A stretch of 64,000 nt of DNA, taken from assembly GCA_050011555.1 (NCBI GenBank), contig JBEKIT010000005.1:36379-100378 (forward strand), written 5' to 3'. Position numbers and translations under genes: made by a program. Below are positions 24,327 to 47,310 of the stretch, piece by piece. The stretch's first letter is position 1; each line of letters starts with the position of its first letter. A model generated the notes under the pieces. That model saw nothing but the letters and a program-made list of their open reading frames with translations, was not told the DNA's origin and did not search any database. This DNA is from Candidatus Dormibacteria bacterium. Lineage in GTDB: Bacteria > Chloroflexota > Dormibacteria > Aeolococcales > Aeolococcaceae.

Positions 24327-25019
24327 TCAGGGGACGGCGTCGACGGCCTGGCGGACCCAGCGCGCGATGACCCCGCGCCGCTCCGCATCGGTGCGCCGCA
24401 GCCACTCCCGCGCGTCATCGGGCAGCGTGAGGTGCCGTGCCCAGGCGCCCAGCAGCGCGCCGTCGACCTCGACGTGGAACTGGAACCCGTAGGCCCGGCC
24501 GAGTCGGAACGCCTGGTTGGGGTACGCCTCGCTCTGAGCCAGGTGGCAGGAGCCGCGGGGCAGGTCAAAGGTGTCGGCGTGCCAGTGGAGCACCGCCAGC
24601 GTCGGGCCGCAGCCCGCGAAGACGGGATCGTCGCGCCCGGGCGCGGTCAGGGTGACCGCCCCCAGGCCCAGCTCCGGGCCCCGCTCCCCGGGCCGCACCG
24701 GCGCACCGCAGGCGGCGGCGGCGAGCTGGGCGCCGAGGCACACCCCGAGCACGGGCAGCCCGCGGGTCACCGCCTCGTGGAGGAGCACCACCTCGTCGCG
24801 GAGCCGCCGATCCGGCGCGTGCACGCTCTGGGGACCGCCCATCACCACCAGGGCGGTCACGCCGTCGAGGGCGGGCAGCGGATCGGCGGCGCTGAGCCGG
24901 CGCACCTGCATGCCGAAGCCGGTGGCGATCTCGCCGATCAGGCCGGGGCCCTCGTCCTCGGCGTGCTCGATGACCACCAGCATGGGAGGTCTCGACCCCT
25001 CCACCGCCGGCTCGGTCAT
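24327..25019 (-). CDS. Class-I glutamine amidotransferase-like protein (GMP-synthase-N-terminal type)
   Basis: Catalytic Cys in LPVLGVCLGAQLAAAA and His/Glu in FQFHVE. 230 aa. The start overlaps the stop of the upstream gene (4-nt overlap). Confidence 0.85.
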   Translation of the reverse strand: MTEPAVEGSRPPMLVVIEHAEDEGPGLIGEIATGFGMQVRRLSAADPLPALDGVTALVVMGGPQSVHAPDRRLRDEVVLLHEAVTRGLPVLGVCLGAQLAAAACGAPVRPGERGPELGLGAVTLTAPGRDDPVFAGCGPTLAVLHWHADTFDLPRGSCHLAQSEAYPNQAFRLGRAYGFQFHVEVDGALLGAWARHLTLPDDAREWLRRTDAERRGVIARWVRQAVDAVP

Positions 25020-25555
25020 TCCTCGCGGACCATCGCCTCAGGGACCGAGACGACCCGGTACGGCAGGTCGGTGATGTCGTAGTAGCGGACCGCTTTGTGG
25101 AACCGCTTGGCGATCCCGATCTGGACCTTCACGCCGAGCGAGATGGTGCCGAAGACCCACATCTCGTCCGACTTGACGATCAGATTGTTGAAGGCCTCGC
25201 GCACCGTCTCCTTGGGCACGGTGTGGAGCAGGTAGTAGTCGAAGAGCATGAAGGGGACGATGGGGACGGCCCCCTCATCGAGGACGAACTTGCTGATGTG
25301 CTGGCGCCAGTAGAAGTTGCGATTGCTAATGGCGCAGTAGACGATCCGTCGCGGACGGCGCAGCACCCGCTCCGCCTGCTCGGCAGGGGACGCCTTGGGC
25401 CGCGGGGTGAAGATCCGCTCGAGGATGTCCTCGGCGTCCTTGACACCCCCGCTGACGGCGGGCGTCGGCGTGGTTTCTTTGTCGGGCACGGCGGCACCCT
25501 GTCTCTCACTGTGCGGGAGCACAAACAGCGTCCGATCATAGCATCGCTCGCTCAT
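25016..25555 (-). CDS. Nucleoside 2-deoxyribosyltransferase-like (DUF4406-like) fold protein with N-terminal extension
   Basis: RIVYCAISN..., ...DEGAVPIVPF..., ...LIVKSDEMWVFG... and ...SLGVKVQIGIAKRFHKAV resemble the NDT/Rcl/LOG-type flavodoxin-like fold. In NDT the corresponding motif is GTAFEMGYA, with a catalytic Glu; here that position is Gln. The region is visibly A/T-richer. 4-nt overlaps on both sides. Confidence 0.45.
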   Translation of the reverse strand: MSERCYDRTLFVLPHSERQGAAVPDKETTPTPAVSGGVKDAEDILERIFTPRPKASPAEQAERVLRRPRRIVYCAISNRNFYWRQHISKFVLDEGAVPIVPFMLFDYYLLHTVPKETVREAFNNLIVKSDEMWVFGTISLGVKVQIGIAKRFHKAVRYYDITDLPYRVVSVPEAMVREE

Positions 25556-26211
25556 CCGGATTCCGCCCAGGCGACCAGATCGGGAAGTCGGGCGAGGGCG
25601 CGCTCCAGGCGGGCGATGTGCGCCGACTCGTTGAGCCAGCGGCTCTGCCCGGACGGGTGGGGCAGCGGGAGCAGCAGGGGCGCGCCGTCACCCACCTCCG
25701 CCTCGGCTCCGGAGGCGTCGAAGAGGCTCCCCACCGCGGCCTCCAGACCCTTCCCGGGAAGGAAGCGGGTCAGCGCCAGGGTCCCGATCGGGAGCACCAA
25801 CCTCGGCTTCAGCAGCGCGAGGACCCCGTTCAACCAGCCGGCGCAGAGGGCGACCTCCCGCGCGCTGGGACGCCGGTCGCCACGGCCGTCGGGGGTGCGC
25901 CCGGGGAAGCAGGTGGTCATCGAGGTCATGTAGACGCGGCGCCGGACGTCGGCGTCGCCGGCGAAGCCACCCCGCTCGAACCAGCGCATCAGCTGCCGGC
26001 CGGCGCGGCCCGCGAAGGGCCGCTGCCCGTCGTTCTCGACCGGCCCCGGAGCCTGTCCCACCAGCAGGATCCGCTGTCCCGGATGGCCGCTGAAGACCGG
26101 GTTGGCAGCCGCCAGGAGGCCCGCGCCGACGCAGCGGGTGCAGGCGCGGTGCGCCGCCTGCAGAGCGTGCAGGGAGCCCCCCTCCAGAGGCGTCCGCTCA
26201 GCTCCGGGCAC
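25552..26211 (-). CDS. Uracil-DNA glycosylase superfamily protein (family 4/5-like, Fe-S type) with non-canonical motif A GQAPG
   Basis: Motif A is ILLVGQAPGPVENDGQRPFAGRAGRQL. The family-4 consensus is GEGPG; E to Q is the kind of change seen in UdgX and UdgB-type enzymes. Motif B is LPLPHPSGQSRWLN. Cys residues for a 4Fe-4S cluster: CTRC, TCFPGR, LCAGW. Confidence 0.75.
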   Translation of the reverse strand: MPGAERTPLEGGSLHALQAAHRACTRCVGAGLLAAANPVFSGHPGQRILLVGQAPGPVENDGQRPFAGRAGRQLMRWFERGGFAGDADVRRRVYMTSMTTCFPGRTPDGRGDRRPSAREVALCAGWLNGVLALLKPRLVLPIGTLALTRFLPGKGLEAAVGSLFDASGAEAEVGDGAPLLLPLPHPSGQSRWLNESAHIARLERALARLPDLVAWAESG

Positions 26212-35076: not shown

Positions 35077-36606
35077 ATGGACGCGGCTCCCCCACCTCCA
35101 CCCCCGCCCACCCCGCCACCAGAGGGGTCCGCCGCGCCACCGGGATGGCCGCCCATGCCGCGCGACTGGCCGCCCGCGCCACCCGACCGGCCGCCCGCGC
35201 CACCTGACTGGCCACCCGCGCCACCCGACTGGCCACCCGCGCCACCGCCCCCGCCGGGATCGGCGCCTCGGGCTCCCTCACCTCTCACCTGGGCACCGCC
35301 CGCCTGGGCACCGGCGGCGGTGCTCCCCGGCCGCGAGATGGTGCTGGCGGGGACGGGCCGCCGCCTCGGGGCGTTCGCCCTCGACGGGGTCTTCATCGGG
35401 ATGATCATCGTGGCCGGGCTGGTGGTGGGCGGCGGCATCGTCGAGGCGGCGATCTCGCCGGCGACCACGATCTCGCCGGCGGCGGCGACCTCGCCCGGGG
35501 TGCTCGCCGGGACGCTCGTCTACCTGCTCACCATCATCGCCACCCCCTTCGTCTACCCGGCGGTGGGCTGGCGGTCGGGGGCCACCCCGGCGATGCGCGT
35601 CCTGGGCCTGCGGGTGGTCGATGCCCGCGGCGGTGACCGGCTGGGCTGGGGTCAGGCGCTGCTCCGCACCGCGGGCTGGTGGTGGTCGCTGCTCACCTGC
35701 GGCGCCGGCTTCATCCCGGCGCTGGCCGACGCCTGGCGCCGGGGCCTCCCCGACCGGATGGCCAGCAGCCTGGTGGTGGCCATCCGGCCCCTGCCGCTCG
35801 CGTGGGTGCCCGGCCCCTACGGCTGGACCATGGCGCCGGCCCGGCCGCCGATGCCCGCCCCGCTCGTCCCCACCGCCCGGGCCGTCTCCGACCCGCCGGC
35901 GACCCGGACCGCGTGGACCTGGACCGACGTGGTCCCGGTGCTGATCGCCCTCCTGCCGATCATCTTCGGGGCCAACTGGGTTGCCGGGATCACCGCACAG
36001 GGACTCAACATCACCGCCGGCACGGGCGGCGCGGTCGCGCTCTCGTACGCGGACGAGATCGCCGTCTACGGCGCCTGCCTGCTCCTGATCTGTCTATTGG
36101 TGCGCTGGCGCCGGCGCACCGCGCTGACCGCCCTCGGCCTGCGGCTGCCCACCTGGCCCTGGCTGGCGGCGGGGATCCCGCTGGGTTTCGCGGCCATCGT
36201 GCTCGAGTACGTGGGTGGGGTGATCGACCGCATCGTCCTCCCCACCGCCAACTCCACCAACCAATGCGTCGGCATCCGCGCCGAGTACGGCGGGTCGGTC
36301 GCGCTGACGCTGCTCGCGACCGCGGTGATCGCACCCATCGCCGAGGAGATCATCTTCCGCGGCTTCACCTTCCGCTGGCTGCAGGGACGGATGCCGCTCT
36401 GGGGGGCGGTGATGGTGAGCGCGGCCCTCTTCTCAGCCGCCCACGTGGGGTGGGCGGAGCCGACCCTCTTCCTCCCCGTCTTCCTCGACGGGCTCCTGCT
36501 CGCCTACGTCTACGCCAAGTCGGGATCGGTCTGGCCGGGGGTGATCATCCACGCCAGCATCAACGTGCTGGCCACGATCATCGTGCTCACCGCCCCGAGC
36601 TGCTGA
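35077..36606 (+). CDS. Fusion: Pro-rich N-terminus + RDD-family domain + CPBP (CAAX/Abi) intramembrane metalloprotease
   Basis: N-terminus PPPPPPTPPPEGSAAPPGWPPMPRDWPPAPPDRPPAPPDWPPAPPDWPPAPPPPP. RDD-like TM region (RRLGAFALDGVFIGMIIVAGL...RVVDARGGDRLGWGQALLR). C-terminal CPBP motifs IAPIAEEIIFRGFTFRWLQ and FSAAHV. Confidence 0.75.
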   Translation: MDAAPPPPPPPTPPPEGSAAPPGWPPMPRDWPPAPPDRPPAPPDWPPAPPDWPPAPPPPPGSAPRAPSPLTWAPPAWAPAAVLPGREMVLAGTGRRLGAFALDGVFIGMIIVAGLVVGGGIVEAAISPATTISPAAATSPGVLAGTLVYLLTIIATPFVYPAVGWRSGATPAMRVLGLRVVDARGGDRLGWGQALLRTAGWWWSLLTCGAGFIPALADAWRRGLPDRMASSLVVAIRPLPLAWVPGPYGWTMAPARPPMPAPLVPTARAVSDPPATRTAWTWTDVVPVLIALLPIIFGANWVAGITAQGLNITAGTGGAVALSYADEIAVYGACLLLICLLVRWRRRTALTALGLRLPTWPWLAAGIPLGFAAIVLEYVGGVIDRIVLPTANSTNQCVGIRAEYGGSVALTLLATAVIAPIAEEIIFRGFTFRWLQGRMPLWGAVMVSAALFSAAHVGWAEPTLFLPVFLDGLLLAYVYAKSGSVWPGVIIHASINVLATIIVLTAPSC

Positions 36607-36795: not shown

Positions 36796-38121
36796 TCACG
36801 CCAGCCGCGCCACCCCCTGGCGGCCGGCCGCGGCCACCGCCTCGGCGACCGACTCGGCCTCCGAGGGATCGAGGCCGGCGCAGGTGATCCTCACCGCGGG
36901 CGCGGTGGTGATCCGGAAGCGCTCCCCGGAAAGGGCGGCGTAGCCGGCCTCGGCAAGCGCGTCCAGCACCGGGGCCTCGGCCTCCACCGGCACCCAGACG
37001 TTGAGGCCGGTGACTCCGTGGGCGGCGATGCCACGCCGTTCCAGGGCGTCGAGGAGCCCCTCCCGCCGCTGTCGGTAGGTGTCGGCGGCCTGAGCGAGCA
37101 GCAGGTCGAGCCCGGGACGCGACCAGAGGCCGATGACCAACCGCTGGAGGAGGTGGCTCACCCATCCCGGCCCGAGCGCCAGCCGTCCCGCCACCCGCGC
37201 CACCGTGCCCTCGTCGCCGCAGACGACGGCCAGGCGGAGGTCGGGGCCGAGGGTTTTGGAGACCGAGCGCACCACCGCCCACGCCGGTGATCCGGGGATG
37301 GCGACCCCGACCACGCTGCCCCCGCCGACCGCCTCGGCGTGGTCGTCCTCGACCACCAGGACGGCGGGGTGGCGGGCCAGGGCGCGGCGGAGCTCGGTGC
37401 GTCGGAGATCGTCGAGCGCGCTGCCGAACGGGTTCTGGCTGCGGGGGGTCATCACCACCGCCCGCGCCCCGCGCCCGAGGGCCTGGTCCAGGTCGTCGGC
37501 GAGCATGCCCCGGGCGTCCACCCGCACTGGCAGCGGCCGCAGCGACATCGCCCGCAGCAGGTCGACGATGGGTGGGTAGACGGGATCCTCGACGGCCACA
37601 GCATCGCCCGGCCGGAGGTGGGCTCCCAGCACCCGCTCGATGCCGTCGACCGCACCGCTGACCACGGTGAGGTGGGAGGCGTCGACGCCGTCGGCGCTGA
37701 GGCGCTCACGGGCGAGGTCGGCAAGGTCCGGCTCGACCAGCGCGGAGCCGTACGACGCCGACCGGCGGGGCAGGCCGGCCAGCGCGCGGCTCCACTCCGG
37801 GAGCAGGCGGGGGTCGGGGTGGCCCAGGGCGAGATCGCGGAGGCCCGGGCGAGGCCGCGCGGTGAACCCGGCGTGGAGAGGTGGCCGGGGGGCGATCGAG
37901 GTGCCGGAGCGCCCGGCACCGACCGCCAGCCCGCGCCGGCCCAGCTCCCGGTACGCGGCGGCCACGGTCGCCGGGCTCACCCCCAGCTCCGCCGCCACCC
38001 GCCGGACGGTGGGCAGGCGCTCGCCCGGCTGGATGCGGCCGTCGCGGACGGCCCCCTCCACGGCGGTGGTGAGGTCGGCGGCGCGATGGCCCGTCGTGTA
38101 AAATAGTTCGGTAACGTTCAC
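36796..38121 (-). CDS. MocR/GabR-family transcriptional regulator (GntR HTH + class-I aminotransferase-like domain)
   Basis: GTG start. HTH ERLPTVRRVAAELGVSPATVAAAYRELGRRG, then a PLP-fold domain (...ISLDSGSP-like...VRSVSKTLGPDLRLAVV has the Lys). Confidence 0.85.
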   Translation of the reverse strand: MNVTELFYTTGHRAADLTTAVEGAVRDGRIQPGERLPTVRRVAAELGVSPATVAAAYRELGRRGLAVGAGRSGTSIAPRPPLHAGFTARPRPGLRDLALGHPDPRLLPEWSRALAGLPRRSASYGSALVEPDLADLARERLSADGVDASHLTVVSGAVDGIERVLGAHLRPGDAVAVEDPVYPPIVDLLRAMSLRPLPVRVDARGMLADDLDQALGRGARAVVMTPRSQNPFGSALDDLRRTELRRALARHPAVLVVEDDHAEAVGGGSVVGVAIPGSPAWAVVRSVSKTLGPDLRLAVVCGDEGTVARVAGRLALGPGWVSHLLQRLVIGLWSRPGLDLLLAQAADTYRQRREGLLDALERRGIAAHGVTGLNVWVPVEAEAPVLDALAEAGYAALSGERFRITTAPAVRITCAGLDPSEAESVAEAVAAAGRQGVARLA

Positions 38122-38139
38122 GTCTTTGTATCATAACAT

Positions 38140-38856
38140 ATGGACGAAATACCAACCTCCAGCGCGGCCACTCGGAGATCCGGCGAAGGCGGCCCGGTGA
38201 GCCCTCGGGTCGAGGTCCGGCGGCACTCGGAGCGCGCTCGCTACGATCGGGCGACGATCGACGCCATCCTCGACGAGGCGCTGATCTGCCACCTCGGGGT
38301 GGTCGTCGAGGGGGAGCCACTGGTGCTCCCGACCGGGTTCGGCCGTATCGGGGACACCCTGTACCTGCACGGCGCGGCGTCCAATCGCAGCCTGGCGGCA
38401 GCCCTGGAGGGAGCCTGCGTGACCGTCACCCACCTGGACGGCCTGGTCATGGCACGCTCCGCATCCGGCCACTCGATGAATTACCGGAGCGTCGTGGTGA
38501 GGGGGCGCGCCCGCGCGGTCACCGATCCGGTGGAGCGGCGGGCCGGGCTGCGCGCCGTGGTCGAGCACGCCATCCCGGGGCGGTGGGACGAGGTGCGCCA
38601 GCCGAGCCCCCGGGAGATGGAGGCCACCGCCGTCATCGCCCTCGACCTGGCCGAGTGCTCGGCGAAGGTCCGGAGTGGCCCTCCGCTCGACCCGGCCGCC
38701 GACCGCCCGCCGGGGGTCTGGGCGGGTGTGGTGCCGCTTCGGATGGTCGCCGGCGCTCCACTCCCCGACCCCGACCTGGGGGAGGGCATCGACGAGGCGC
38801 CGAGCGTGAGCCGGGTGCGGCGGCGATTTCCCACGCTCCCCGACGACGGCGTGTGA
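38140..38856 (+). CDS. Pyridoxamine 5'-phosphate oxidase-like (FMN-binding split-barrel) protein
   Basis: ATIDAILDEALICHLGVVVEGEPLVLPTGFGRIGDTLYLHGAASNRS... matches the PNPOx-like fold. It is divergent from the MocR regulator across an AT-rich intergenic region (GTATCATAACATATGG). Confidence 0.75.
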   Translation: MDEIPTSSAATRRSGEGGPVSPRVEVRRHSERARYDRATIDAILDEALICHLGVVVEGEPLVLPTGFGRIGDTLYLHGAASNRSLAAALEGACVTVTHLDGLVMARSASGHSMNYRSVVVRGRARAVTDPVERRAGLRAVVEHAIPGRWDEVRQPSPREMEATAVIALDLAECSAKVRSGPPLDPAADRPPGVWAGVVPLRMVAGAPLPDPDLGEGIDEAPSVSRVRRRFPTLPDDGV

Positions 38857-38860
38857 CCGG

Positions 38861-39814
38861 GTGACCCGCACCCGCCTCACCCCCCTCCTGATCGCCTGCT
38901 TCGCCGCCGTCTTCCTGATCTGGGGCTCCACCTACCTCGCCATCCGGTTCGCGATCGAGACGATCCCGCCTCTCGCCATGGCCGGGCTCCGCTTCCTCAC
39001 CGCCGGCGCCCTCCTCTTTCCGCTCGCCTACCTGACCGGCGATCGCGCCCACGACCGCCTGAGGGCGGTGCACTGGCGCTCGGCCCTGGTCATCGGGTCG
39101 CTGCTCCTCTTCGCGGGCAATGGGGTGATCACCCTCGCCGAGCAGCACGTCGCCTCGGGGCTGGTCGCCCTGCTGGTGGCCACCGTGCCCCTCTGGATGG
39201 CGGCCTTCGGCCATCTCGCCGGTGTCCAGCGGGTGGGCCGGGTGGGAGCGGTGGGCCTGGCCGCGGGGCTGCTGGGGGTCGGCCTGATGCTCCGCCCGGG
39301 CAGCGTCGGTGCGGGGTCCCCGGGCTGGATCGCCTTCACGCTGATCTCGCCGCTCACCTGGGCGCTGGGCTCGATGTACGCCCGGAGCGCCCCGATGCCC
39401 CGGCGTCCGCTGCTCGCGACCTCGATGGAGATGCTCTGCGGCGGCGCCGTCCTCTGCGTGACGGCCACCCTGCTGGGGGAGTGGGGGCAGTTCCATCCGG
39501 CGGCGATCTCGGCGGTCTCGGTGGCGGGATTCGTCTACCTGGTGGTCGCCGGCTCGATGGTCGGGTACACCGCCTACACCTACCTCAACGGCAAGGTCTC
39601 CCCCCAGGCGGCGTCGAGCTACGCCTACGTCAACCCGCTGGTGGCGGTGCTCCTGGGCTGGGCCTTCGTCGGCGAGACCATCACCCCCACCACCCTCCTG
39701 GCCGGGGGGCTCATCGTGGTCGCCGTCGTCGCCCTGCTCGCGGGCGACCGCCGTCCGTCGTGGCGCGCCGCCAGGGCGCCCTCTCCCGCCGCCACCGAGG
39801 CGGAGGTCGCCTGA
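38861..39814 (+). CDS. EamA/DMT-superfamily transporter
   Basis: 10 TM segments. GSTYLAIRFAIETIPPLAMAGLRF and a second EamA repeat (FTLISPLTWALGSMYAR). Confidence 0.85.
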   Translation: MTRTRLTPLLIACFAAVFLIWGSTYLAIRFAIETIPPLAMAGLRFLTAGALLFPLAYLTGDRAHDRLRAVHWRSALVIGSLLLFAGNGVITLAEQHVASGLVALLVATVPLWMAAFGHLAGVQRVGRVGAVGLAAGLLGVGLMLRPGSVGAGSPGWIAFTLISPLTWALGSMYARSAPMPRRPLLATSMEMLCGGAVLCVTATLLGEWGQFHPAAISAVSVAGFVYLVVAGSMVGYTAYTYLNGKVSPQAASSYAYVNPLVAVLLGWAFVGETITPTTLLAGGLIVVAVVALLAGDRRPSWRAARAPSPAATEAEVA

Positions 39815-39861
39815 TCCCAGCGGCCGGCTGAACGCGGCGATGCTGCCCGACCGGCGGTCAC

Positions 39862-40722
39862 GTGCCCGCGCGGCGGCCGGTCCGCAGACAGATCGCTGCA
39901 TCCCGGAAGGCCGCCCGAACTCCGCCGCCAGCGACAATGCCGGGGGTGACCTCCGAGCCGGCCCTCCCGGCCCACGACCCCGCCGCCGGCCCAGCGCTCG
40001 CGGGAGCGGCTCAGTCCGCGGGCGATTCGGCCCCTCTCCCTCCGCGCCGGCGGCTCATCGAGGGGCACTGGGGATGGCTGGACGTCCTGATCGTCGGGCC
40101 TCTGGTGGCCAGCTCGATCTACTACTACGCCGGCCTGCCCCTCGGCACCTGGCTGATCCTCCACAACCAGCCGGTGCGGGCGGCGCTGCTCCGAGGTTCC
40201 ACGGCGTCGATGATCCTGACCGGGGCCGCGGTCCGCACCTCGGGCCTGAGCATCTGGGTGGCGCTGCTCGCACCCCTCCCGATCACCATGTGCACCGACC
40301 CCTGCTTCTTCTACGGCGGCCGCCGCTACGGCCGCGCCCTGATCCAGTTCCTCGGACGCAGCGACCCGCGCTGGGACCGGCGGATGGCGAGGGGGGAGCG
40401 GATCTTTGCCCGCTGGGCCGGCTGGGCGGTGTTTCTCGCTCCGGTGATCTGGCTGCCCAACTCCGTCTTCTACTTCCTCGCGGGAGAGCCCCGCAAGATG
40501 CCGTTCTGGCAGTTCATCCTCCTGGACACGGCCGGCGAGCTGGCCTTCATCGCCGAGATCGAGGCCCTCGGCTACTTCATCGGCAAGCCGGCCGAGGACG
40601 TCGCCAAGTCCCTCTCCAACTACAGCATCCCCATCGTCATCGGGCTGGTGGTCCTGATGGTGGTGGTCTCCGCGGTGAGCGGGGTGCGGCGCGCCCGGAC
40701 CGGTTCGGGTCCCGCGAGGTGA
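39862..40722 (+). CDS. DedA/VTT-domain-like membrane protein
   Basis: Hydrophobic segments. FYGGRRYGRALIQFLGRSDPRWDRRMARGERIFARWAGWAVFLAPVIWLPNSVFYFLAGEPRKMPFWQF resembles the DedA core. The start could be the internal M at about 39937. Confidence 0.5.
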   Translation: MPARRPVRRQIAASRKAARTPPPATMPGVTSEPALPAHDPAAGPALAGAAQSAGDSAPLPPRRRLIEGHWGWLDVLIVGPLVASSIYYYAGLPLGTWLILHNQPVRAALLRGSTASMILTGAAVRTSGLSIWVALLAPLPITMCTDPCFFYGGRRYGRALIQFLGRSDPRWDRRMARGERIFARWAGWAVFLAPVIWLPNSVFYFLAGEPRKMPFWQFILLDTAGELAFIAEIEALGYFIGKPAEDVAKSLSNYSIPIVIGLVVLMVVVSAVSGVRRARTGSGPAR

Positions 40723-41405
40723 CGGGCCGCCCCGATTCGGCCACAATCACCACCGTGGCCGAGCTCCCGAGGCAGTTCGTCCTCGGCGTGGACCTCGACG
40801 GCGTCTGCGCCGACTACTACCCCTTCATGCGCCGGGTGGTCGCCGACTGGCTGGGGCGTGACATCGACTCGCTCCCCACCGACGTCGGCTGGGAGATGAC
40901 CGAATGGGGCATCGAGCCCGGGGAGTTCCACAAGGTCCACCGCTTCGCGGTGGTGCAGCGCAAGCTCTTCCTCGAGGTGGGCATGATCGTGGGCGCCGGG
41001 CCCGCCCTGCGCCGGCTGTCCAATCTGGGGATCCGGATCCGGATCATCACCCACCGCCTGGTCATCGAGCACTTTCATCAGATCGCGGTCGCACAGACGG
41101 TGGAATGGCTGGACCGCCACGGCATCCCCTACTGGGACCTCTGCTTCATGGGCGAGAAGGGCGCGGTCAACGCCGACCTCTACATCGAGGACTCCCCCTA
41201 CAACGTCGAGGCGCTGCTCCGCGATCATCGCAACGTCATCGTCTTCAGCCATGCCGCCAACACCCACATCGACGTCCCCGACGAGCAGCGCGCCCGCACC
41301 TGGGCGGAGGCGGAGCCGCTCATCGTGGCGCGCTACCACGCCTGGGAGCGGCGGGGTGGCGCCGAGGAGATGCGCCGCCGCGCATCAGATCGCGTCGCGG
41401 GGTGA
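40719..41405 (+). CDS. HAD-superfamily 5'(3')-deoxyribonucleotidase (NT5C family)
   Basis: The GTG overlaps the upstream TGA (GTGA). PRQFVLGVDLDGVCADYYPFMRRVVADWLGRD is the NT5C DxDGV motif I. Also ...RIITHR..., GIPYWDLCFMGEKGAVNADLYIEDSPYN. Confidence 0.75.
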   Translation: MTGRPDSATITTVAELPRQFVLGVDLDGVCADYYPFMRRVVADWLGRDIDSLPTDVGWEMTEWGIEPGEFHKVHRFAVVQRKLFLEVGMIVGAGPALRRLSNLGIRIRIITHRLVIEHFHQIAVAQTVEWLDRHGIPYWDLCFMGEKGAVNADLYIEDSPYNVEALLRDHRNVIVFSHAANTHIDVPDEQRARTWAEAEPLIVARYHAWERRGGAEEMRRRASDRVAG

Positions 41406-42400
41406 CCGCGGACAGCCTCGAGGTCGATGGCCACGACCTCGCGATCTCCAATCCCGACAAGGTCTTCTTCGCGGAGCGGGGAATCACCAAGCGACAGCTG
41501 GTCGAGTACTACCTGGCGGTGGCCGACGGCGCGCTGACCGGCTGCTTCGACCGTCCGTCGGTGCTCAAGCGCTACCCCAACGGGGCCGCCGGCCCCTTCT
41601 TCTTCCAGAAGCGCGCCCCGGTGGGTGACGCCCCGTACCTGCGCACCACCACGGTCCATTTCCCGAGCGGACGCAGCGCCAGCCTGCTGGTCATCGACTC
41701 GGCGGCGGCCCTGCTCTGGTCGGTGAACCTCGGCTGCATCGACATCAACCCCTGGCCGGTGCGCAGCGGCGACACCGACCACCCCGACGAGCTGCGCGTC
41801 GACCTCGACCCCCAGCCCGACGTCCCCTTCGCCGACATCCGCCGGGTCGCCCTGGTGGTGCGCGAGGTGCTGGAGGAGATGGGCCTGCGCGGGTACCCCA
41901 AGACCTCGGGCTCGCGGGGCATCCACATCAACGTGCGGATCGTTCCCGAGCACGGCTTCACCGCCGTCCGCCGCGCCGCGTTGGCCCTGGCCCGCGAGGT
42001 CGAGCGCCGAGCCCCCACCCTCGCCACCAGCAAATGGTGGAAGGAGGAACGTCACGGGGTGTTCATCGACTACAACCAGAACGCCCGGGACCGCACCGTG
42101 GCCAGCGCCTACTCGGTGCGCCCGGTCCCCGATGCGCGGGTCTCCTGCCCGCTGGAGTGGGACGAGGTGGCCGACGTCGAACCGGCCGACCTGACCGTGG
42201 AGACGGTGCCACGCCGATTGAGCCAGAGGGGTGACCCGGGTGCCGGCATCGACGCCGTCGCCCACCGGCTCGACTCCCTGCTGGAGCTGGCCGACCGCGA
42301 CGAGCGCGAGGGGCTCGGTGACGCCCCCTGGCCGCCGCACTTCCCCAAGGGCGACGACGAGCCGCGCCGGGTGGCACCGTCCCGCGCCCGGAAGGACTGA
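41402..42400 (+). CDS. Standalone LigD polymerase domain (NHEJ primase-polymerase, PolDom)
   Basis: The GTG overlaps the NT5C stop (GTGA). Hallmark AEP motifs: DGHDLAISNPDKVFF, VIDLDP-like LRVDLDPQPD, PKTSGSRGIHINVRI, FIDYNQNARDRTVASAYSVRP. About 332 aa. Confidence 0.85.
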   Translation: MTADSLEVDGHDLAISNPDKVFFAERGITKRQLVEYYLAVADGALTGCFDRPSVLKRYPNGAAGPFFFQKRAPVGDAPYLRTTTVHFPSGRSASLLVIDSAAALLWSVNLGCIDINPWPVRSGDTDHPDELRVDLDPQPDVPFADIRRVALVVREVLEEMGLRGYPKTSGSRGIHINVRIVPEHGFTAVRRAALALAREVERRAPTLATSKWWKEERHGVFIDYNQNARDRTVASAYSVRPVPDARVSCPLEWDEVADVEPADLTVETVPRRLSQRGDPGAGIDAVAHRLDSLLELADRDEREGLGDAPWPPHFPKGDDEPRRVAPSRARKD

Positions 42401-42464
42401 GCCCAGGAGACGCGGGACACGACCGGTGACCCGTGGCCGAGAGAGCGCCTGGCCCGCCGGGGGC

Positions 42465-43274
42465 TCACGCCACCGCCCGCATGCTCGAGCCGACCTGCTC
42501 CACAAGAACCTCCTCCCAGGTGCGGCGGCCCAGGACGGCGTGCTCGGGGGCCAGGTTGGCGCCGGCCCGGATCGCGCGTGCGGCCCCGCCCGGCATGTGC
42601 AGGGGGAGGAGCACGCGGTGGCGGCGGCTGGCCCGCAAGTAGCCGCGGAGCAGTTCGTCCATGGCGTACGTGCGCGGCCCGGCCATTTCGGGCACCAGGC
42701 CGGCCGGCTCGCCGAGGGCGAGCTCTGCGACCCGAGCCGCGACCTCCCCGGTGTCGACCGGCTGGAACCGGATCCCCGCCGGCACGGGTAGGACGGGCAG
42801 CTTCGACATCTGCCGGGCCACGGCCAGGAGGGCGTCGTGGAATTGGGTGGCGCGCAGCGTCGTCCAGGGCAGGCCAGAGCCCGAGATCTCGTGCTCGGCG
42901 GCCAGCTTGGCGGCGAAGTAGCCGAACATGGCACGGTCGACGCGGCTCCGGACCGGCACCCGGTCGGCGCCCACCACGGAGATGTTGACCAGGTGCGGCG
43001 TCCCCACCCCCAGCGCCGCCCGCACCAGGATCCTGGCCATTCCGTCATCGCCCTTGGCGCTGCCAGCGCAGTTCACCACGGTGGTGACGCCTGCGAGCGC
43101 GGGCTCGATCCCCTCGCCGGTGCGAAGGTCGCCCACCAGGTGCTCAATGCCATCTCCGTGGTCACCCGGGTGGCGGGTGACCACGCGCACCTCGCACCCG
43201 GCGTCGCGCAGCCGCGCGACCACGGGCCGCCCCAGCCTTCCGGTGCCGCCAATTACCAGAATCCTCGCTGTCAT
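42465..43274 (-). CDS. NmrA-like/atypical SDR NAD(P)-binding protein
   Basis: MTARILVIGGTGRLGRPVVARLRDAGCEVRVVTRHP is a Rossmann GxxGxxG. About 269 aa, no YxxxK motif; NmrA-like. Confidence 0.8.
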   Translation of the reverse strand: MTARILVIGGTGRLGRPVVARLRDAGCEVRVVTRHPGDHGDGIEHLVGDLRTGEGIEPALAGVTTVVNCAGSAKGDDGMARILVRAALGVGTPHLVNISVVGADRVPVRSRVDRAMFGYFAAKLAAEHEISGSGLPWTTLRATQFHDALLAVARQMSKLPVLPVPAGIRFQPVDTGEVAARVAELALGEPAGLVPEMAGPRTYAMDELLRGYLRASRRHRVLLPLHMPGGAARAIRAGANLAPEHAVLGRRTWEEVLVEQVGSSMRAVA

Positions 43275-43368
43275 GGCTCCTCCTGATCAGGGGGCTGATC
43301 CGCCCGTCAAATTGGCTCGATCTCGCGGGTCTACCCTTCAGACACGCCGGGAAGGAGCGATGTGACCG

Positions 43369-44253
43369 ATGGCTGACCAGGATTGGCTGGCGGATCGATT
43401 CGAGGAACAGCGGGCCCATCTGCGCTCGGTGGCATACCGGATGCTGGGGTCGCTCACCGAGGCCGACGATGCGGTCCAGGACGCCTGGCTGCGACTCAGC
43501 CGCAGCGGCGCCGGCGAGGTGGAGAACCTCCAGGCGTGGCTGACCACGGTCGTCGCCCGTGTCTGCCTCAATGCCCTGCGCTCCCGCAACGTGCGCCGCG
43601 AGGAGGCGCTCCCCGTGCACGTGCCGGATCCGGTCGTCGCCTCACCGGAGGAGCAGGCGATACTCGCCGACTCGGTCGGGCTCGCCCTGCTCGTCGTGCT
43701 CGACACGCTGACCCCTGCGGAGCGTCTCGCGTTCGTGCTCCACGACATGTTCCAGCTGCCCTTCGAGGCGATCGCCCCGATGGTGGGGCGCACGCCCGTG
43801 GCCACGAGGCAGCTCGCCAGCCGGGCGCGTCGGCGGATCACAGGCGCGGATGTGCCCGCTCCGGACACCGACCTCGCCCGCCAGCACAAGGTGGTCGATG
43901 CCTTCTTCCAGGCAGCCCGCGCGGGCGACTTCGACGCCCTGGTCGCGTTGCTCGACCCGGCGGTGGTGCTGCGGCTCGACGCCGGCGCGGCGCCCTCCTC
44001 CGCCTCCATGGTGCGCAGCGGCGCGGCGGTGGTGGCCCGGCAGGCGCTGCGAGGTCTGCGCTCCGCTCTCCCTGGCGCGGAGATCCGGCCCGCGGTCGTG
44101 AACGGCGCCGCCGGCGTGGTGGTCACCGTGGGCGGACGGCCGGTCACCGTGATGGGCTTCACCGTCGCCGGTGGCCGGATCGTCGAGATCGATGCCATCG
44201 CCGATCCGGAGCGCGTCGCGAGGCTTGCCACCACCGGCTTCGCCGGCGAGTAG
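43369..44253 (+). CDS. ECF sigma factor with fused C-terminal SnoaL-like extension (ECF41-like)
   Basis: Region 2 (RSVAYRMLGSLTEADDAVQDAWLRL) and region 4 (LDTLTPAERLAFVLHDMFQLPFEAIAPMVGRTPVATRQLASRAR), then about 110 aa of extension ending DPERVARL. It is divergent from the NmrA-like gene, a typical ECF41 neighbourhood. Confidence 0.8.
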   Translation: MADQDWLADRFEEQRAHLRSVAYRMLGSLTEADDAVQDAWLRLSRSGAGEVENLQAWLTTVVARVCLNALRSRNVRREEALPVHVPDPVVASPEEQAILADSVGLALLVVLDTLTPAERLAFVLHDMFQLPFEAIAPMVGRTPVATRQLASRARRRITGADVPAPDTDLARQHKVVDAFFQAARAGDFDALVALLDPAVVLRLDAGAAPSSASMVRSGAAVVARQALRGLRSALPGAEIRPAVVNGAAGVVVTVGGRPVTVMGFTVAGGRIVEIDAIADPERVARLATTGFAGE

Positions 44254-44296
44254 ACGCAGGAGGCTGCGACGTCCGCAGCCCGGCCAGCCCCCCGGG

Positions 44297-45325
44297 CTAT
44301 CCGCCGCCGTTCAGGATCGCCCCCAGGTCGAAGGGGTGGGGCGGCAGCAGCTGGTCATACCCGCACTCGCCGGCGGCCTTGTCGGGGCGCCAGCGCAGGA
44401 AGCGGGAGGCGTGGCGGAAGCGGTTGCCCTGGAGGTGGTCGAATGCGACCTCGCAGACCAGCTCGGGGCGCACGGCCACCCAGTCGGCGTCCCGTCCCCT
44501 CGTCCATCGCGACGGCCCGCCCGGCGTCCGCCCCGCGCCGAAGGAGGTGCCGCCCTCCAGGGGCCGCAGCCGGGCGAGCAGGTCGCGGCGCTCGGCGGCC
44601 GAGAACGAGGAGGTGTGGCCGACGTGGTGGAGGACCCCGTCGCCGTCGTACAGGCCGAGCAGGAGGGATGCCACCGCCTCGACCTTGAGGTCCTTCCGGT
44701 ACCCCCCGACCACGCAGTCGACGGTGCGGAGATGCTTGACCTTGATCCAGCCGCGATCGCCGCTCCGGTATGTCGAGTCGAGCGGCTTGGCGACCACCCC
44801 GTCGCAGCCGGCTCCCTCGAACCGTTCGAACCAGGTGGCCGCCTCCTCGGGATCGGTGGTCTGGGGGGTCAGCGCGACCCGGGGGTTGGGGATGAGCACC
44901 GCCCCGAGGCGGCGGGCCCGCTCCTGGAGGGGCTGATCGCGGAGATCCTCCTCCCCCACCGCCAGCAGGTCGAAGGCGATGAAGGTCGCCGGGCTGTCGG
45001 CGGCGAGCATCCGCACCCGGGACGCGGCGGGATGGAGGCGGAGCTGGAGGGCGTCGAAGTCGAGACCGCGCGGGCCGGCGATGACGATCTCGCCGTCGGC
45101 CACCGCCATCTCCGGGAGAGCGGCGCGCAGGGGGTCGAGCAGCTCCGGGAAGTAGCGCTGGAGAGGGAGGCTGTTGCGGCTCTCCAGGTGGATTGAATCG
45201 CCCTCGCGGAAGACGATGCAGCGGAAGCCGTCCCACTTCGGCTCGTACACGAGGCCGGGAGTTGCCGGGATCTCGACCTCGGAGCGGCAGAGCATGGGCT
45301 GGAGGGGAGGGTGGAGTGCGGGCAT
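44297..45325 (-). CDS. ATP-dependent DNA ligase (LigC/LigD ligase-domain type)
   Basis: From ATG at about 45325: adenylation motif I EPKWDGFR; motif III ATFIAFDLL; motif IV DGVVAKP; motif V WIKVKH. OB domain at the C-terminus. The 58-codon N-terminal extension of the track ORF was rejected. Confidence 0.85.
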   Translation of the reverse strand: MPALHPPLQPMLCRSEVEIPATPGLVYEPKWDGFRCIVFREGDSIHLESRNSLPLQRYFPELLDPLRAALPEMAVADGEIVIAGPRGLDFDALQLRLHPAASRVRMLAADSPATFIAFDLLAVGEEDLRDQPLQERARRLGAVLIPNPRVALTPQTTDPEEAATWFERFEGAGCDGVVAKPLDSTYRSGDRGWIKVKHLRTVDCVVGGYRKDLKVEAVASLLLGLYDGDGVLHHVGHTSSFSAAERRDLLARLRPLEGGTSFGAGRTPGGPSRWTRGRDADWVAVRPELVCEVAFDHLQGNRFRHASRFLRWRPDKAAGECGYDQLLPPHPFDLGAILNGGG

Positions 45326-45383
45326 CGGGCCGATCGTACGGCAGGGGTGGCGCGATGCCCAGCGGCCGGGTGACCGGCGCGGG

Positions 45384-46328
45384 TCAGCAGCGGTCGACCG
45401 CCTCCCGGGTTCCCCCCGCCGCGGCGGGAAGGAGACCGGCCACCAGACGGCGGAGGGAGCAGGCGGTGTCGCTGAGCGCCGGCAGGCGGGTTGCGCCAAC
45501 GCTCACGTACACGGTGGACCCGCAGGCCCATTCCGACACCATGTAGCTGGGGCGGGAGCTGAAGGACGGCGGCTCGAAGGTGATCGTGAAGAGGAGGGAG
45601 TCCTCGGCGCAGAACGACTCCGGCGCGACGGGGAGACCGTTGACAGCGGCGGCCAGCCGGGCGCTGTCCGCCTCGCCGAGCTCCACGTTCACCGGACCGC
45701 TGGAGGGGTTCATGTCAGAGAGGGTCGTGTAGCCGGTCAGCTGCGCGATCGCCTGGGGAGGGATCATCTCGGTCCCCGACCGGTCGGGCACCCATACGAC
45801 CTCAGCGTCGATGCGGAGCACGTAGCCGCCGCCAGGGGCATCGGTGCTCTCGTAGATGAGCTGGGCCCAGTGCTCGTTGGGTCCCGAGGTGGGAAGGGAG
45901 ACGGCGAACCCGCTCGTCATGCCCTGAGGCCCATTTCCGCTGTTGCCCCCCGCATAGCTGCTGCCGGCAGGCAGGCGGGCGAGCACATAGCGGTCGAGGG
46001 AGCCGCTCCCATCCGGCGCGGCGGGTTCCCCCACCAGGTAGAGCTGGTGCAGGTCGATGAGGCCGCTGATGGCGACGGTCTGGACCGAGTTGAGGTCCGC
46101 CGGAGGCTGAGCCGTCCAGGCCTGCTCACCGGGAGGGATGGGGGCCGAGTCCAGCACCTGGATGGCGTACTGGTCTGCGGACGCCGGCGGGGCGGCCGCG
46201 GGTGTCGTGCGGGCGAACCCGGTCGCAGTGGTGGGCGCACCGGCGGTGGTCAGCACGGCGGGGAGGAAGGCGAGCGCCATGACCACGGCGACGCACGCGG
46301 TGACGATCCTGCGCCCCTGCACGTCCAT
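45384..46328 (-). CDS. Secreted hypothetical protein
   Basis: Signal peptide MDVQGRRIVTACVAVVMALAFLPAVLTTAGA. 314 aa, Ser/Pro/Gly-rich, no recognisable family. Confidence 0.5.
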   Translation of the reverse strand: MDVQGRRIVTACVAVVMALAFLPAVLTTAGAPTTATGFARTTPAAAPPASADQYAIQVLDSAPIPPGEQAWTAQPPADLNSVQTVAISGLIDLHQLYLVGEPAAPDGSGSLDRYVLARLPAGSSYAGGNSGNGPQGMTSGFAVSLPTSGPNEHWAQLIYESTDAPGGGYVLRIDAEVVWVPDRSGTEMIPPQAIAQLTGYTTLSDMNPSSGPVNVELGEADSARLAAAVNGLPVAPESFCAEDSLLFTITFEPPSFSSRPSYMVSEWACGSTVYVSVGATRLPALSDTACSLRRLVAGLLPAAAGGTREAVDRC

Positions 46329-46457: not shown

Positions 46458-46880
46458 TCAGCCGGTGAACGCTCCCCCGCCGGCCGGCGTCCGCAGCCGG
46501 ATCAGGTTGACGACCTCGGCACCGCCTCGGACGCGCTCGATCACCTCGCTGGCGCGGCGGATCTGCTCCAGCGAGCCCACCTCGCCGCGCACGGTGAGGG
46601 TGCCGTCATCGCCGGCGATCACCCGGAGCCCGAACCCGTCCGCGCCCAGCTCGTCGAGCAGGGCGTCGGCGATCTCTGCCCGGAGCTCGGCGGCCCCAGC
46701 TCTGCCCCGTCGGCGGCGGGTGCCGACCAGGGAGGTGACGTTCGAACCCTCGCGGACGAGCCGCTCCCCGCCGCGTCGGACCGCCTCCCGGCGGTCCGCC
46801 CCCTTGCGCGGGTGCAGGAAGAAGGCGGCGCCCGCGGCGGCGATCGCTCCGAGGCCGACGATGCGTGCGCGCTTCTTCAT
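46458..46880 (-). CDS. BON-domain protein (OsmY-like)
   Basis: From MKKRARIVGLGAIAAAGAAFF (TM/signal). The BON core is VIAGDDGTLTVRGEVGSLEQIRRASEVIERVRGGAEVVNLIRL. Confidence 0.65.
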   Translation of the reverse strand: MKKRARIVGLGAIAAAGAAFFLHPRKGADRREAVRRGGERLVREGSNVTSLVGTRRRRGRAGAAELRAEIADALLDELGADGFGLRVIAGDDGTLTVRGEVGSLEQIRRASEVIERVRGGAEVVNLIRLRTPAGGGAFTG

Positions 46881-46884
46881 CCGC

Positions 46885-47310
46885 TCAATGGAGGTCGATG
46901 GCTGGGCCGGTGACGGCGAACGGGAGGTGGCCGGCGGCGCCGAACAGGGCAAAGAGGGCGAGCGCCGCGCCGAGCAGGGTCACGTTGCGGAGAAAGCTGC
47001 CCTGCTGGATGCGCCGGGTCGCCGGGTCCGCGAAGTTCCAGAAGGGGTGGAAGAGCAGCGCGGCGGGCGCCAGGAAGGCGGCGATCATGAGCGCTCCCAG
47101 GTCCGCCCAGATGCCGGCGACGATCGAGACCGCCGCCAGGAGCAGGTAGATCCCGGTGGGGACACCGGCCAGGAAGGCGATCGGCAGCTTGCCGTGGGCG
47201 ATCCCCACGTACTGGGGATGACGCCGCATGTGACCCCACGCCGAGAAGGCGAAGAGGGAGCTGAAGAGCAGCCGTCCGACCAGCAGGAAGATCCCGCCCA
47301 GCGTGTCCAT
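46885..47310 (-). CDS. DoxX-family membrane protein
   Basis: From ATG at about 47310: MDTLGGIFLLVGRLLFSSLFAFSAWGHM...IAFLAGVPTGIYLLLAAVSIVAGIW...IAAFLAPAALLFHPFW. About 141 aa, 4 TM helices. Confidence 0.7.
   Translation of the reverse strand: MDTLGGIFLLVGRLLFSSLFAFSAWGHMRRHPQYVGIAHGKLPIAFLAGVPTGIYLLLAAVSIVAGIWADLGALMIAAFLAPAALLFHPFWNFADPATRRIQQGSFLRNVTLLGAALALFALFGAAGHLPFAVTGPAIDLH

Follow-up and report, generated by a model that had tools for sequence, protein, structure and literature searches.

Overlapping genes for a nucleotidase-like phosphatase and a primase-polymerase raise the question of whether the two constitute a dedicated DNA repair system or are neighbours that share a transcript. 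Such a pair is present in the 64,000-nucleotide stretch of DNA analyzed here (the window, whose numbering is used throughout), which is an unremarkable part of a Dormibacteria-type chromosome. Three consecutive plus-strand genes, coding for a DedA/VTT-like membrane protein, an NT5C-family phosphatase and a stand-alone Prim-PolC-type polymerase, are joined in the sequence by two GTGA stop/start overlaps. An earlier note on this DNA described the last two as an NT5C nucleotidase coupled to a LigD PolDom, a combination of which it knew no earlier description, and a literature search combining LigD or primase-polymerase with nucleotidases or HAD enzymes likewise returned no report of an NT5C/Prim-PolC pairing.

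Organization of the locus

The two overlaps lie where the earlier note had placed them. At 40719-40722 the TGA that ends the DedA-like gene (40720-40722) overlaps the GTG that begins the NT5C gene (40719-40721), an arrangement shared by roughly 10 of the 14 close relatives compared; at 41402-41405 the NT5C gene ends in TGA (41403-41405) and the Prim-PolC gene begins with GTG (41402-41404), and this second overlap is kept in all 13 of the loci L001-L013. Such stop/start overlaps make co-transcription of the three genes very probable, and co-expression of NT5C and Prim-PolC therefore likely; translational coupling may occur as well. Overlaps of 4 bp are routine in the window, with seven of them between co-directional open reading frames when each frame is counted from its first possible start codon, and an alternative in-frame GTG at 40755 would, if used as the NT5C start, abolish the first overlap.

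The three genes complete a plus-strand string of five with tiny or negative intergenic gaps. The string begins with a PNPOx-like gene (Pyridox_ox_2, PF12900, E 8e-43; 38140-38856), which is syntenic in L001-L017, L164-L166 and L170, and continues after a 4-bp gap with an EamA/DMT transporter gene (PF00892, E 4e-31; 38861-39814) that is missing in L001, L003 and L007. The DedA/VTT-like gene (39862-40722) has an uncertain start, with an alternative ATG near 39937, and its product matches the VTT/DedA domain weakly at 21.8 bits, below the cut-off of 33.9; nine of nine orthologues match VTT_dom at E <= 0.1, the best at 2e-12, and PF09335 is found in called genes of L162, L164 and L170. Divergent from the string, on the minus strand, is a gene for a MocR-type regulator with a GntR DNA-binding and an aminotransferase-like domain (Pfam GntR and Aminotran_1_2; 36796-38121), and this divergent arrangement of regulator, PNPOx-like gene and DMT transporter gene resembles the PdxQ-type regulons (PMC5320631).

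With such short gaps and such a regulator, NT5C could belong with the genes upstream of it, as the phosphatase of a MocR-controlled PNPOx-like/DMT/DedA unit that dephosphorylates, for example, a vitamer or metabolite before export, with Prim-PolC merely the last gene in the transcript; the DedA-like gene is also found upstream of NT5C in L014, L016 and L017, all of which lack Prim-PolC. However, genes are inserted between DedA and NT5C in L019, L162, L164-L166 and L170, the NT5C subfamily is elsewhere never located beside PNPOx, EamA or DedA genes, and the fold and family of the protein indicate nucleotide substrates. We regard membership in an upstream unit as quite improbable.

A scan of positions 37900-45700 detected nothing promoter-like and a single terminator-like hairpin, located within the Prim-PolC gene; both outcomes are at chance level and uninformative for a genome of 72% GC. 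Recent horizontal transfer of the pair was considered and rejected: GC3 is 0.93 for NT5C and Prim-PolC alike, the same as for their neighbours, and there is thus no sign of such an event. Downstream of Prim-PolC are genes for an NmrA-like NAD(P)-binding protein (minus strand, 42465-43274; PF13460/PF05368) and for an ECF sigma factor with a C-terminal SnoaL_2 domain (plus strand, 43369-44253; Sigma70_r2, r4_2 and SnoaL_2), which form a single insertion that the window shares with L004 and L013 alone and that is absent from L001 and others.

The polymerase and a nearby LigC-type ligase

The product of the third gene (plus strand, 41402-42400; 332 aa) matches the LigD_Prim-Pol family PF21686 at 289 bits (E 4e-86), and Pfam and NCBIfam profile searches found no ligase or phosphoesterase domain in it; it is a single-domain, separate polypeptide, as the earlier note had held. 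Its identification as the PolDom of an NHEJ LigD is not borne out. The AEP/LigD_Prim-Pol fold family is shared with the LigD of the LigD/Ku NHEJ system (M. tuberculosis Rv0938, PolDom 2IRU), but the match to that domain is weaker (E 1e-37) than the match to M. smegmatis Prim-PolC (PDB 6sa0/5op0; E 1e-107), and the window protein has no fused ligase or phosphoesterase. It aligns end to end with the polymerase of the mycobacterial LigC complex (MSMEG_6301 Prim-PolC, 5OP0 and 6SA0, with LigC1/LigC2; PMC5663958, PMC7442782), with which it has in common the catalytic Asp triad (D134/D136/D223, corresponding to D140/D142/D231 in 6sa0), the 5'-phosphate pocket, the Loop 2 WWK motif and Loop 3. In the pocket (N20, K23, Y25 and K35) the Asn and both Lys residues are identical and Y25 is replaced by Phe. 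Loop 3, comprising residues 313-333 in M. smegmatis, is the defining feature of the Prim-PolC subfamily (PMC7442782), and this C-terminal loop is present here with the motif GLGDAPWPPHFPK; the segment GLGDAPWPPHFPKGDDEPRRV is matched to GLGDLPYPPNYPKMPGEPPRV in an alignment that reaches residue 336 of 6sa0, with P320, K324 and R331 retained and the pin residue N321 changed to His. Loop 3 blocks the in-trans end-joining geometry (PMC7442782), and its presence is a further difference from the LigD PolDom. The polymerase is an orthologue of mycobacterial Prim-PolC in a Dormibacteria-type host, not a generic NHEJ PolDom, and by orthology it would be expected to fill short gaps with rNTPs.

A gene for an ATP-dependent DNA ligase, not mentioned in the earlier note, is located 1.9 kb downstream of Prim-PolC and convergent with it (minus strand, 44297-45325; Pfam DNA_ligase_A_M and A_C), with the NmrA-like and ECF sigma genes lying between the two. 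Its open reading frame extends to 45499, and the orthologue starts at MPAL... give a product of 342 aa. This protein scores 455.8 bits against the LigC model NF006078 (cut-off 296) and 175 bits against NHEJ_ligase_lig, below the cut-off of 228, and is LigC-type, not LigD. LigC is directly adjacent to Prim-PolC in L001, L003 and others, and the convergent arrangement seen in the window is the commonest among the surveyed loci. Scanning 47 predicted proteins of the 64-kb window revealed no Ku domain (a few short open reading frames lay outside the scan), and a Ku gene may be present elsewhere in the genome.

The window polymerase belongs to the LigC excision-repair or short-gap module and is not an NHEJ LigD PolDom. 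By analogy with its mycobacterial homologues, Prim-PolC would bind the 5'-phosphate of a 1-3 nt excision-repair gap and fill it preferentially with ribonucleotides, and LigC would then seal the remaining nick; the functional repair unit would consist of Prim-PolC and LigC. An upstream overlapping NT5C phosphatase is not reported for mycobacterial Prim-PolC (PMC5663958, PMC7442782) and is a feature of the window.

The NT5C-family phosphatase

That the HAD protein is NT5C-like, as first proposed, is upheld by its family match, conserved motifs and predicted fold. The gene at 40719-41405 (plus strand) encodes a putative 5'(3')-(deoxy)nucleotidase of 228 aa that matches PF06941 at 142.7 bits (cut-off 24.8; E 1.4e-41) over profile positions 3-178 of 180, and matches none of the NCBIfam models. 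Residues of HAD motifs I-IV (D25/D27, T111, K147 and D153/D158) are invariant across 20 homologues. They comprise the DxDxV nucleophile/acid, the motif II Thr, the motif III Lys and the motif IV acidic pair, and their counterparts in mdN are D41/D43 and the remaining motif residues. In the AF2 model (pLDDT 86.8) cap helices 33-45, 70-80 and 83-86, between motifs I and II, lie over the active site, and the top 16 Foldseek matches of this model in the PDB are cdN, mdN, the bacterial dN-like 3bwv and mdN-derived designs, with cdN 2i7d, mdN 4mum/1z4i and 3bwv the best. PF06941 membership, motifs I-IV and the capped fold (TM-scores 0.59-0.78) are thus common to the window protein and to cdN (NT5C, 2I7D), mdN (NT5M, 1MH9/4L6A) and S. 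epidermidis 3BWV, but sequence identity is only about 17-23%, and the window subfamily, unlike cdN and mdN, has invariant motifs of its own (HRFAV, RIRIITHRL and PYWDLCFM). In the substrate pocket mdN F49 corresponds to Tyr or Phe and W76 to an aromatic residue, and W96 is not conserved (A77); with the pocket residues partly conserved, a preference for 2'-deoxyribonucleoside monophosphates is putative. The model points to a capped small-molecule (d)NMP phosphatase, closest to human cdN and mdN and not PNKP-like.

This bears on the earlier suggestion of an end-cleaning enzyme. In one form of that idea, NT5C would be a PNKP-like HAD 3'-phosphatase that strips the 3'-phosphate produced by a bifunctional glycosylase, allowing extension by Prim-PolC and sealing by LigC. 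The phosphatases of PNKP and T4 Pnk are HAD-superfamily enzymes, and they have HAD chemistry and a DxDxT/V nucleophile motif in common with NT5C, a likeness that is one of analogy only. NT5C also adjoins Prim-PolC and is probably co-expressed with it, and the BER route of Prim-PolC and LigC needs a 3'-phosphatase step, for which EndoIV or XthA is the supplier in mycobacteria (PMC5663958). However, the helical cap over the modelled active site is typical of small-molecule phosphatases, small-molecule HAD enzymes account for every one of the 50 best PDB fold matches, with cdN and mdN leading and no PNKP-type structure among them, and the NT5C subfamily is frequently found in genomes and gene neighbourhoods that lack Prim-PolC or LigC. 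End cleaning is the role that we find hardest to credit, and we consider it highly improbable.

Distribution of the NT5C/Prim-PolC pairing

Anchored on NT5C, a neighbourhood survey covered the top 80 among at least 567 species genomes. Prim-PolC is directly downstream of NT5C in 14 of these 80 closest loci, all of them in metagenome-assembled genomes of one Dormibacteria-type clade, and the surrounding block is mostly syntenic among the 14. Neither Prim-PolC nor LigC is found within 8 kb of NT5C at any of the 61 loci of other lineages in the best 80, a set that spans Planctomycetota, Betaproteobacteria, Acidobacteriota and other groups and includes five cultured actinomycetes. Neighbour clustering identified no DNA-repair genes beside NT5C in other phyla; rpsL-rpsG-fusA (18 loci) and a DEAD-box helicase were found instead. 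In the reverse survey, of 80 Prim-PolC loci of other lineages at 58-69% identity, LigC lies beside Prim-PolC in 36 and NT5C in none. Divergent AEP or NT5C genes that tblastn might have overlooked were sought with profile HMMs in six-frame translations, with zero matches in either direction. Neither family includes an NT5C/AEP fusion protein among its top 120 matches. We note that one Prim-PolC/GNAT fusion is present among the top 120 matches.

The conserved pair is Prim-PolC/LigC, the NT5C/Prim-PolC pairing is restricted to one lineage, and the NT5C subfamily is widespread but normally resides in unrelated gene contexts. The neighbourhood check that the earlier note had proposed therefore has a divided outcome, with the pairing present in related genomes of a single Dormibacteria clade and absent from 61/61 distant NT5C loci and 80/80 distant Prim-PolC loci. 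A conserved two-gene NT5C/Prim-PolC system is not supported, as the pairing does not recur in independent lineages in either direction.

The linked NT5Cs all group together in a single clade (NJ bootstrap 89/100), which indicates that the linkage arose once; NT5C would have been placed beside the LigC/Prim-PolC locus a single time, in the clade ancestor. The pairing has since been broken several times within the clade. Four close relatives (L014-L017) and L170 carry NT5C and LigC without Prim-PolC, with no Prim-PolC pseudogene remnant detected in L014-L017 even at E <= 10, nor in L170, and Prim-PolC has been lost at least twice with NT5C retained. A membrane-protein gene is inserted between NT5C and Prim-PolC in L019, and NT5C stands alone in the subclade L167/L169/L171/L020, where those of L167, L169 and L171 are near AAA_28, RNase_T, GMP synthase or dCMP-deaminase-like genes. 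In L162 and L163, an NT5C with 55% identity to that of the window is directly upstream of Prim-PolC and has different outer flanks; independent recruitment of NT5C in L162 was considered and rejected, as it groups with the other linked NT5Cs. Wherever a member of the clade has LigC, NT5C lies no more than about 2 kb from it.

Interpretation

We think it probable, with some reserve, that NT5C and Prim-PolC are co-transcribed neighbours by virtue of inherited and decaying synteny, and not an obligate two-component system or a new repair system. Four observations run against a reading from synteny alone. The GTGA overlap of NT5C and Prim-PolC persists in 13/13 loci despite turnover of the flanks (EamA is lost in three, and the NmrA-like and ECF sigma genes are present in three); the adjacency in L162/L163 is retained at 55% NT5C identity with altered outer flanks; NT5C has persisted near LigC, which could reflect selection for co-expression; and there is a precedent in fpg, a lineage-specific operon partner of the LigC/Prim-PolC module in mycobacteria that has been treated as meaningful (PMC5663958).

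A functional link could operate through nucleotide pools, with NT5C co-expressed with Prim-PolC and LigC (in stationary phase or dormancy, for example) and hydrolysing dNMPs, including excised or damaged ones; this would lower the dNTP supply or give a cleaner pool during ribonucleotide gap filling, and would block the re-salvage of damaged dNMPs. The conserved stop/start overlap implies co-expression, NT5C remains by the LigC locus throughout the clade despite many local indels, the closest characterised relatives, cdN and mdN, are dNMP-specific pool regulators, and Prim-PolC prefers rNTPs, with the LigC complex peaking when dNTP pools drop (PMC5663958). Yet the linkage arose only once and is found at none of the 61 and none of the 80 loci beyond the clade, NT5C has outlasted at least two losses of Prim-PolC, and the protein is only about 21-23% identical to cdN and mdN and lacks the mdN W96. 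Moreover, a soluble nucleotidase works on the whole-cell pool, so adjacency is unnecessary for its effect. We judge a pool-based link to be unlikely, if less so than the roles in an upstream unit or in end cleaning. It is similarly doubtful that NT5C was recruited in one Dormibacteria lineage as a translationally coupled accessory of Prim-PolC and LigC, its destruction of dNMPs leading to ribonucleotide patching in dormancy or, less likely, its action being that of a PNKP-like 3'-phosphatase.

The NT5C/Prim-PolC pairing provides no basis for annotation, or for discussion in reviews, as a new conserved NHEJ-associated system. The solid result is the presence of a Prim-PolC/LigC short-gap repair module, complete with Loop 3, in the Dormibacteria, uncultured soil and peat bacteria that are thought to stay dormant for long periods; this module has been studied so far only in mycobacteria. 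Its NT5C neighbour is a testable lead for an accessory factor, which may be a nucleotide-pool regulator or an end phosphatase.

Identity of the polymerase and its ligase neighbor

The polymerase encoded at 41402-42400 (+) (Pfam PF21686 LigD_Prim-Pol, 289 bits) finds its best solved-structure matches in M. smegmatis Prim-PolC (6sa0 and 5op0; E 1e-107, residues 3-328 aligned), whereas the M. tuberculosis LigD PolDom (2iru) matches at only 1e-37. In the M. smegmatis enzyme the 5'-phosphate pocket comprises N20, K23, Y25 and K35, and D140, D142 and D231 are catalytic (PMC7442782). Alignment with 6sa0 places the catalytic residues of the window protein at D134, D136 and D223; the phosphate pocket is present but with Phe in place of Y25, the Loop 2 WWK motif is present, and Loop 3, the hallmark of the Prim-PolC subfamily, is complete (GLGDAPWPPHFPK...) with His replacing the pin Asn. 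Pfam and NCBIfam profile searches found no ligase or phosphoesterase domain in it, in line with the earlier note, which describes a separate polypeptide without a fused ligase or nuclease domain. In one 551-aa homologue, P0210, the Prim-PolC domain (69% identity) is joined to a domain of the GNAT acetyltransferase type.

Convergent with the polymerase gene, and absent from the earlier note, is a LigC-type ATP-dependent DNA ligase gene (44297-45325, -; NCBIfam NF006078, 455.8 bits against a cut-off of 296), whose listed ORF begins 58 codons before the likely MPAL... start. Because the ligase passes this model and fails the NCBIfam NHEJ ligase models, and a scan of 47 predicted proteins of the window turned up no Ku domain, the polymerase is best assigned to a predicted Prim-PolC/LigC module and not to LigD/Ku NHEJ, against the NHEJ reading in the earlier note. 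The mycobacterial Prim-PolC/LigC complex is expressed in stationary phase, works with base excision repair enzymes and fills gaps of 1-3 nt with ribonucleotides (PMC5663958).

In the window, two inserted genes (42465-44253) separate Prim-PolC from LigC, one NmrA-like and the other for an ECF sigma factor with a SnoaL_2 domain. This insertion is shared by only two homologous loci from other genomes (L004 and L013), and the same pair lies ~1.2 kb upstream of a Prim-PolC from an unrelated lineage (L116). A small gene of ~140 aa adjoins LigC in many Dormibacteria loci (L162 8033-8440, with a weak YtxH match; L164 8090-8512; L170 8237-8674), and it stays near LigC about as consistently as NT5C does; in the window, the gene one beyond LigC (46458-46952, -) encodes a 164-aa BON-domain protein. 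A class-I glutamine amidotransferase, a DUF7768 protein and a UDG-superfamily DNA glycosylase, an unexplained combination with two 4-bp overlaps, are encoded 15 kb from the Prim-PolC/LigC locus (24327-26211, -).

The gene string and its junctions

Upstream of Prim-PolC on the plus strand are genes for a DedA-like membrane protein (39862-40722; VTT/DedA, 21.8 bits, below the cut-off) and an NT5C-type HAD phosphatase (40719-41405; Pfam PF06941, 142.7 bits). The "DedA-like" label is reasonable because all nine of nine orthologues match the VTT/DedA family (best E 2e-12). The ORF listing and raw sequence bear out the GTGA junctions previously reported for these three genes; at both, the upstream TGA stop overlaps the downstream GTG start. 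NT5C has a second possible in-frame GTG start at 40755, and 4-bp overlaps are routine here, with seven between co-directional ORFs in the window when each is taken from its first possible start codon. Since the overlap makes co-transcription very likely, NT5C and Prim-PolC are probably co-expressed in this organism, and translational coupling across the overlapping codons is possible. A terminator-like GC-rich hairpin with a T/C-rich tail lies within the Prim-PolC coding region (41582-41596, +), the count of such elements being at chance level.

The DedA-NT5C-Prim-PolC genes run on in the same strand after genes for a Pyridox_ox_2 protein and an EamA/DMT transporter, from which a MocR-type regulator (GntR plus aminotransferase fold) diverges (36796-39814); the arrangement resembles PdxQ-type divergons, in which a PNPOx-like gene accompanies a DMT transporter (PMC5320631). 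NT5C and Prim-PolC are likely part of a longer string starting opposite the regulator, and that NT5C belongs functionally with these upstream MocR-controlled genes seems unlikely. Farther upstream (35077-36606, +), and kept there in related loci, is the gene for a 509-aa membrane protein whose N-terminus is proline-rich and which carries an RDD domain and, at its C-terminus, an Rce1-like CAAX protease domain.

The NT5C-like protein

Residues D25/D27 (DxDxV), T111, K147 and D153/D158 are invariant in an alignment of 20 NT5C homologues and correspond to the catalytic positions in human mdN. An AlphaFold2 model built from this alignment (pLDDT 86.8, pTM 0.81) has cap helices between motifs I and II, and its best PDB fold matches are the human 5'(3')-deoxyribonucleotidases cdN (2i7d) and mdN (4mum, 1z4i and 1mh9) and the S. 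epidermidis dN-like protein 3bwv (E ~1e-8, TM-scores 0.59-0.78), followed by other small-molecule HAD phosphatases; no PNKP-type DNA phosphatase is among the top 50. The PF06941 match, catalytic residues and fold together indicate an NT5C-like protein, a putative (deoxy)nucleotidase, and therefore not the generic HAD phosphatase on which the earlier proposal would have foundered. It is only ~17-23% identical to the characterized enzymes, its subfamily carries invariant motifs of its own, and no NCBIfam model matches it.

Distribution and history of the linkage

At least 567 loci of the NT5C subfamily were found using one genome per species, and the best 80 were taken with 8-kb flanks and their gene content determined by tblastn with the window's proteins. 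Prim-PolC directly follows NT5C in 14 of these 80 (L001-L013 and the fragmentary L018), nearly all labelled as Dormibacteria/Dormibacterota MAGs; 'Candidatus Changshengia' belongs to class Dormibacteria. In L001-L013 NT5C is at least 78% identical to that of the window and all 13 share the same GTGA overlap, and much of the flanking block is syntenic in the paired loci (PNPOx-like, EamA, DedA, LigC and further neighbors). Four close relatives (L014-L017; NT5C 75-79% identity) retain the block together with LigC but lack Prim-PolC, with no remnant found; nothing occupies its slot in L015 and L017, and a Kelch-like secreted protein gene does so in L014 (8387-9829) and L016 (8626-9861). The window paralogue of this gene (22688-24034, +; 41-46% identity) is a secreted repeat protein, Kelch-like by eye, with no Pfam match. 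In L019 a large membrane-protein gene separates NT5C from Prim-PolC.

In the other 61 loci, neither tblastn nor profile HMMs detected Prim-PolC or LigC within 8 kb of NT5C; these loci represent Planctomycetota, Betaproteobacteria, Acidobacteriota, Acidimicrobiia and further groups, with five cultured actinomycetes among them, and their recurrent neighbors are unrelated to repair (e.g. rpsL-rpsG-fusA in 18). This independence from repair genes, together with the capped fold of the model, argues against NT5C being a PNKP-like 3'-phosphatase, which we consider highly improbable. A reciprocal survey, whose query alignment was headed by an actinomycete-type homologue, yielded 80 metagenome loci with Prim-PolC 58-69% identical to the window's: tblastn and HMM searches found NT5C in none (64 have at least 700 bp upstream), and LigC, the positive control for a real functional neighbor, in 36. 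The anticipated pairing in related genomes thus holds within one Dormibacteria-type clade and fails in the 61 distant NT5C loci and the 80 Prim-PolC loci.

Individual protein look-ups (L161-L171) bridge the two surveys. The best evidence for persistence is L162/L163, where NT5C, only 55% identical to the window's, lies directly upstream of Prim-PolC/LigC and the outer flanks differ. In L164-L166 a 52-bp gap separates NT5C and Prim-PolC, and a gene on the opposite strand has been inserted between DedA and NT5C. L170 combines the PNPOx-like, EamA and VTT genes with three of the kynurenine pathway, NT5C, a small ORF and LigC, and lacks Prim-PolC. L161 (6001-10029) has Prim-PolC (71% identity), LigC and a VTT gene, without NT5C; its VTT/DedA gene, which shares the strand of LigC and lies immediately upstream of it, has no tblastn match to the window DedA-like protein, so VTT-LigC proximity may recur independently. 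NT5C stands alone in L167-L169 and L171, convergent to an AAA_28 P-loop protein in L167 (6001-7985), L168 and L169 (6001-12076), and near an RNase_T exonuclease in L167 and L171 (1287-2485); GMP synthase and two dCMP-deaminase-like genes are nearby in L169. The neighbors of this LigC-unlinked subclade hint at a role in nucleotide metabolism.

In a neighbor-joining tree of 87 NT5C sequences, all those linked to LigC or Prim-PolC fall in one clade (bootstrap 89/100 on a 44-taxon subset), with the unlinked L167/L169/L171/L020 group inside or beside it; the unlinked Dormibacteria-labelled L021, L031 and L036 lie elsewhere. The simplest history is a single ancestral juxtaposition and, after it, at least three or four independent disruptions: Prim-PolC was lost twice, a gene was inserted between the two once, and the two became completely separated once.

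We somewhat favor NT5C and Prim-PolC as co-transcribed neighbors through inherited synteny. A pool-level link, with NT5C clearing dNMP or lowering dNTP during ribonucleotide patch repair, would fit the invariant GTGA overlap, the adjacency kept in L162 and the stationary-phase biology of the mycobacterial complex (PMC5663958), but the linkage has a single origin and was lost repeatedly, and we regard this link as rather doubtful; that NT5C is an accessory factor of Prim-PolC/LigC is about as improbable. A literature search found no published description of NT5C beside LigD-type polymerases, and a new conserved NT5C/Prim-PolC system is not supported by the comparative data. Prim-PolC plus LigC appears to be the conserved functional unit, and NT5C a putative capped small-molecule nucleotidase of a widespread subfamily that adjoins it in only one lineage. 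Every part comes from known families; what is new is the occurrence of Prim-PolC/LigC in Dormibacteria.
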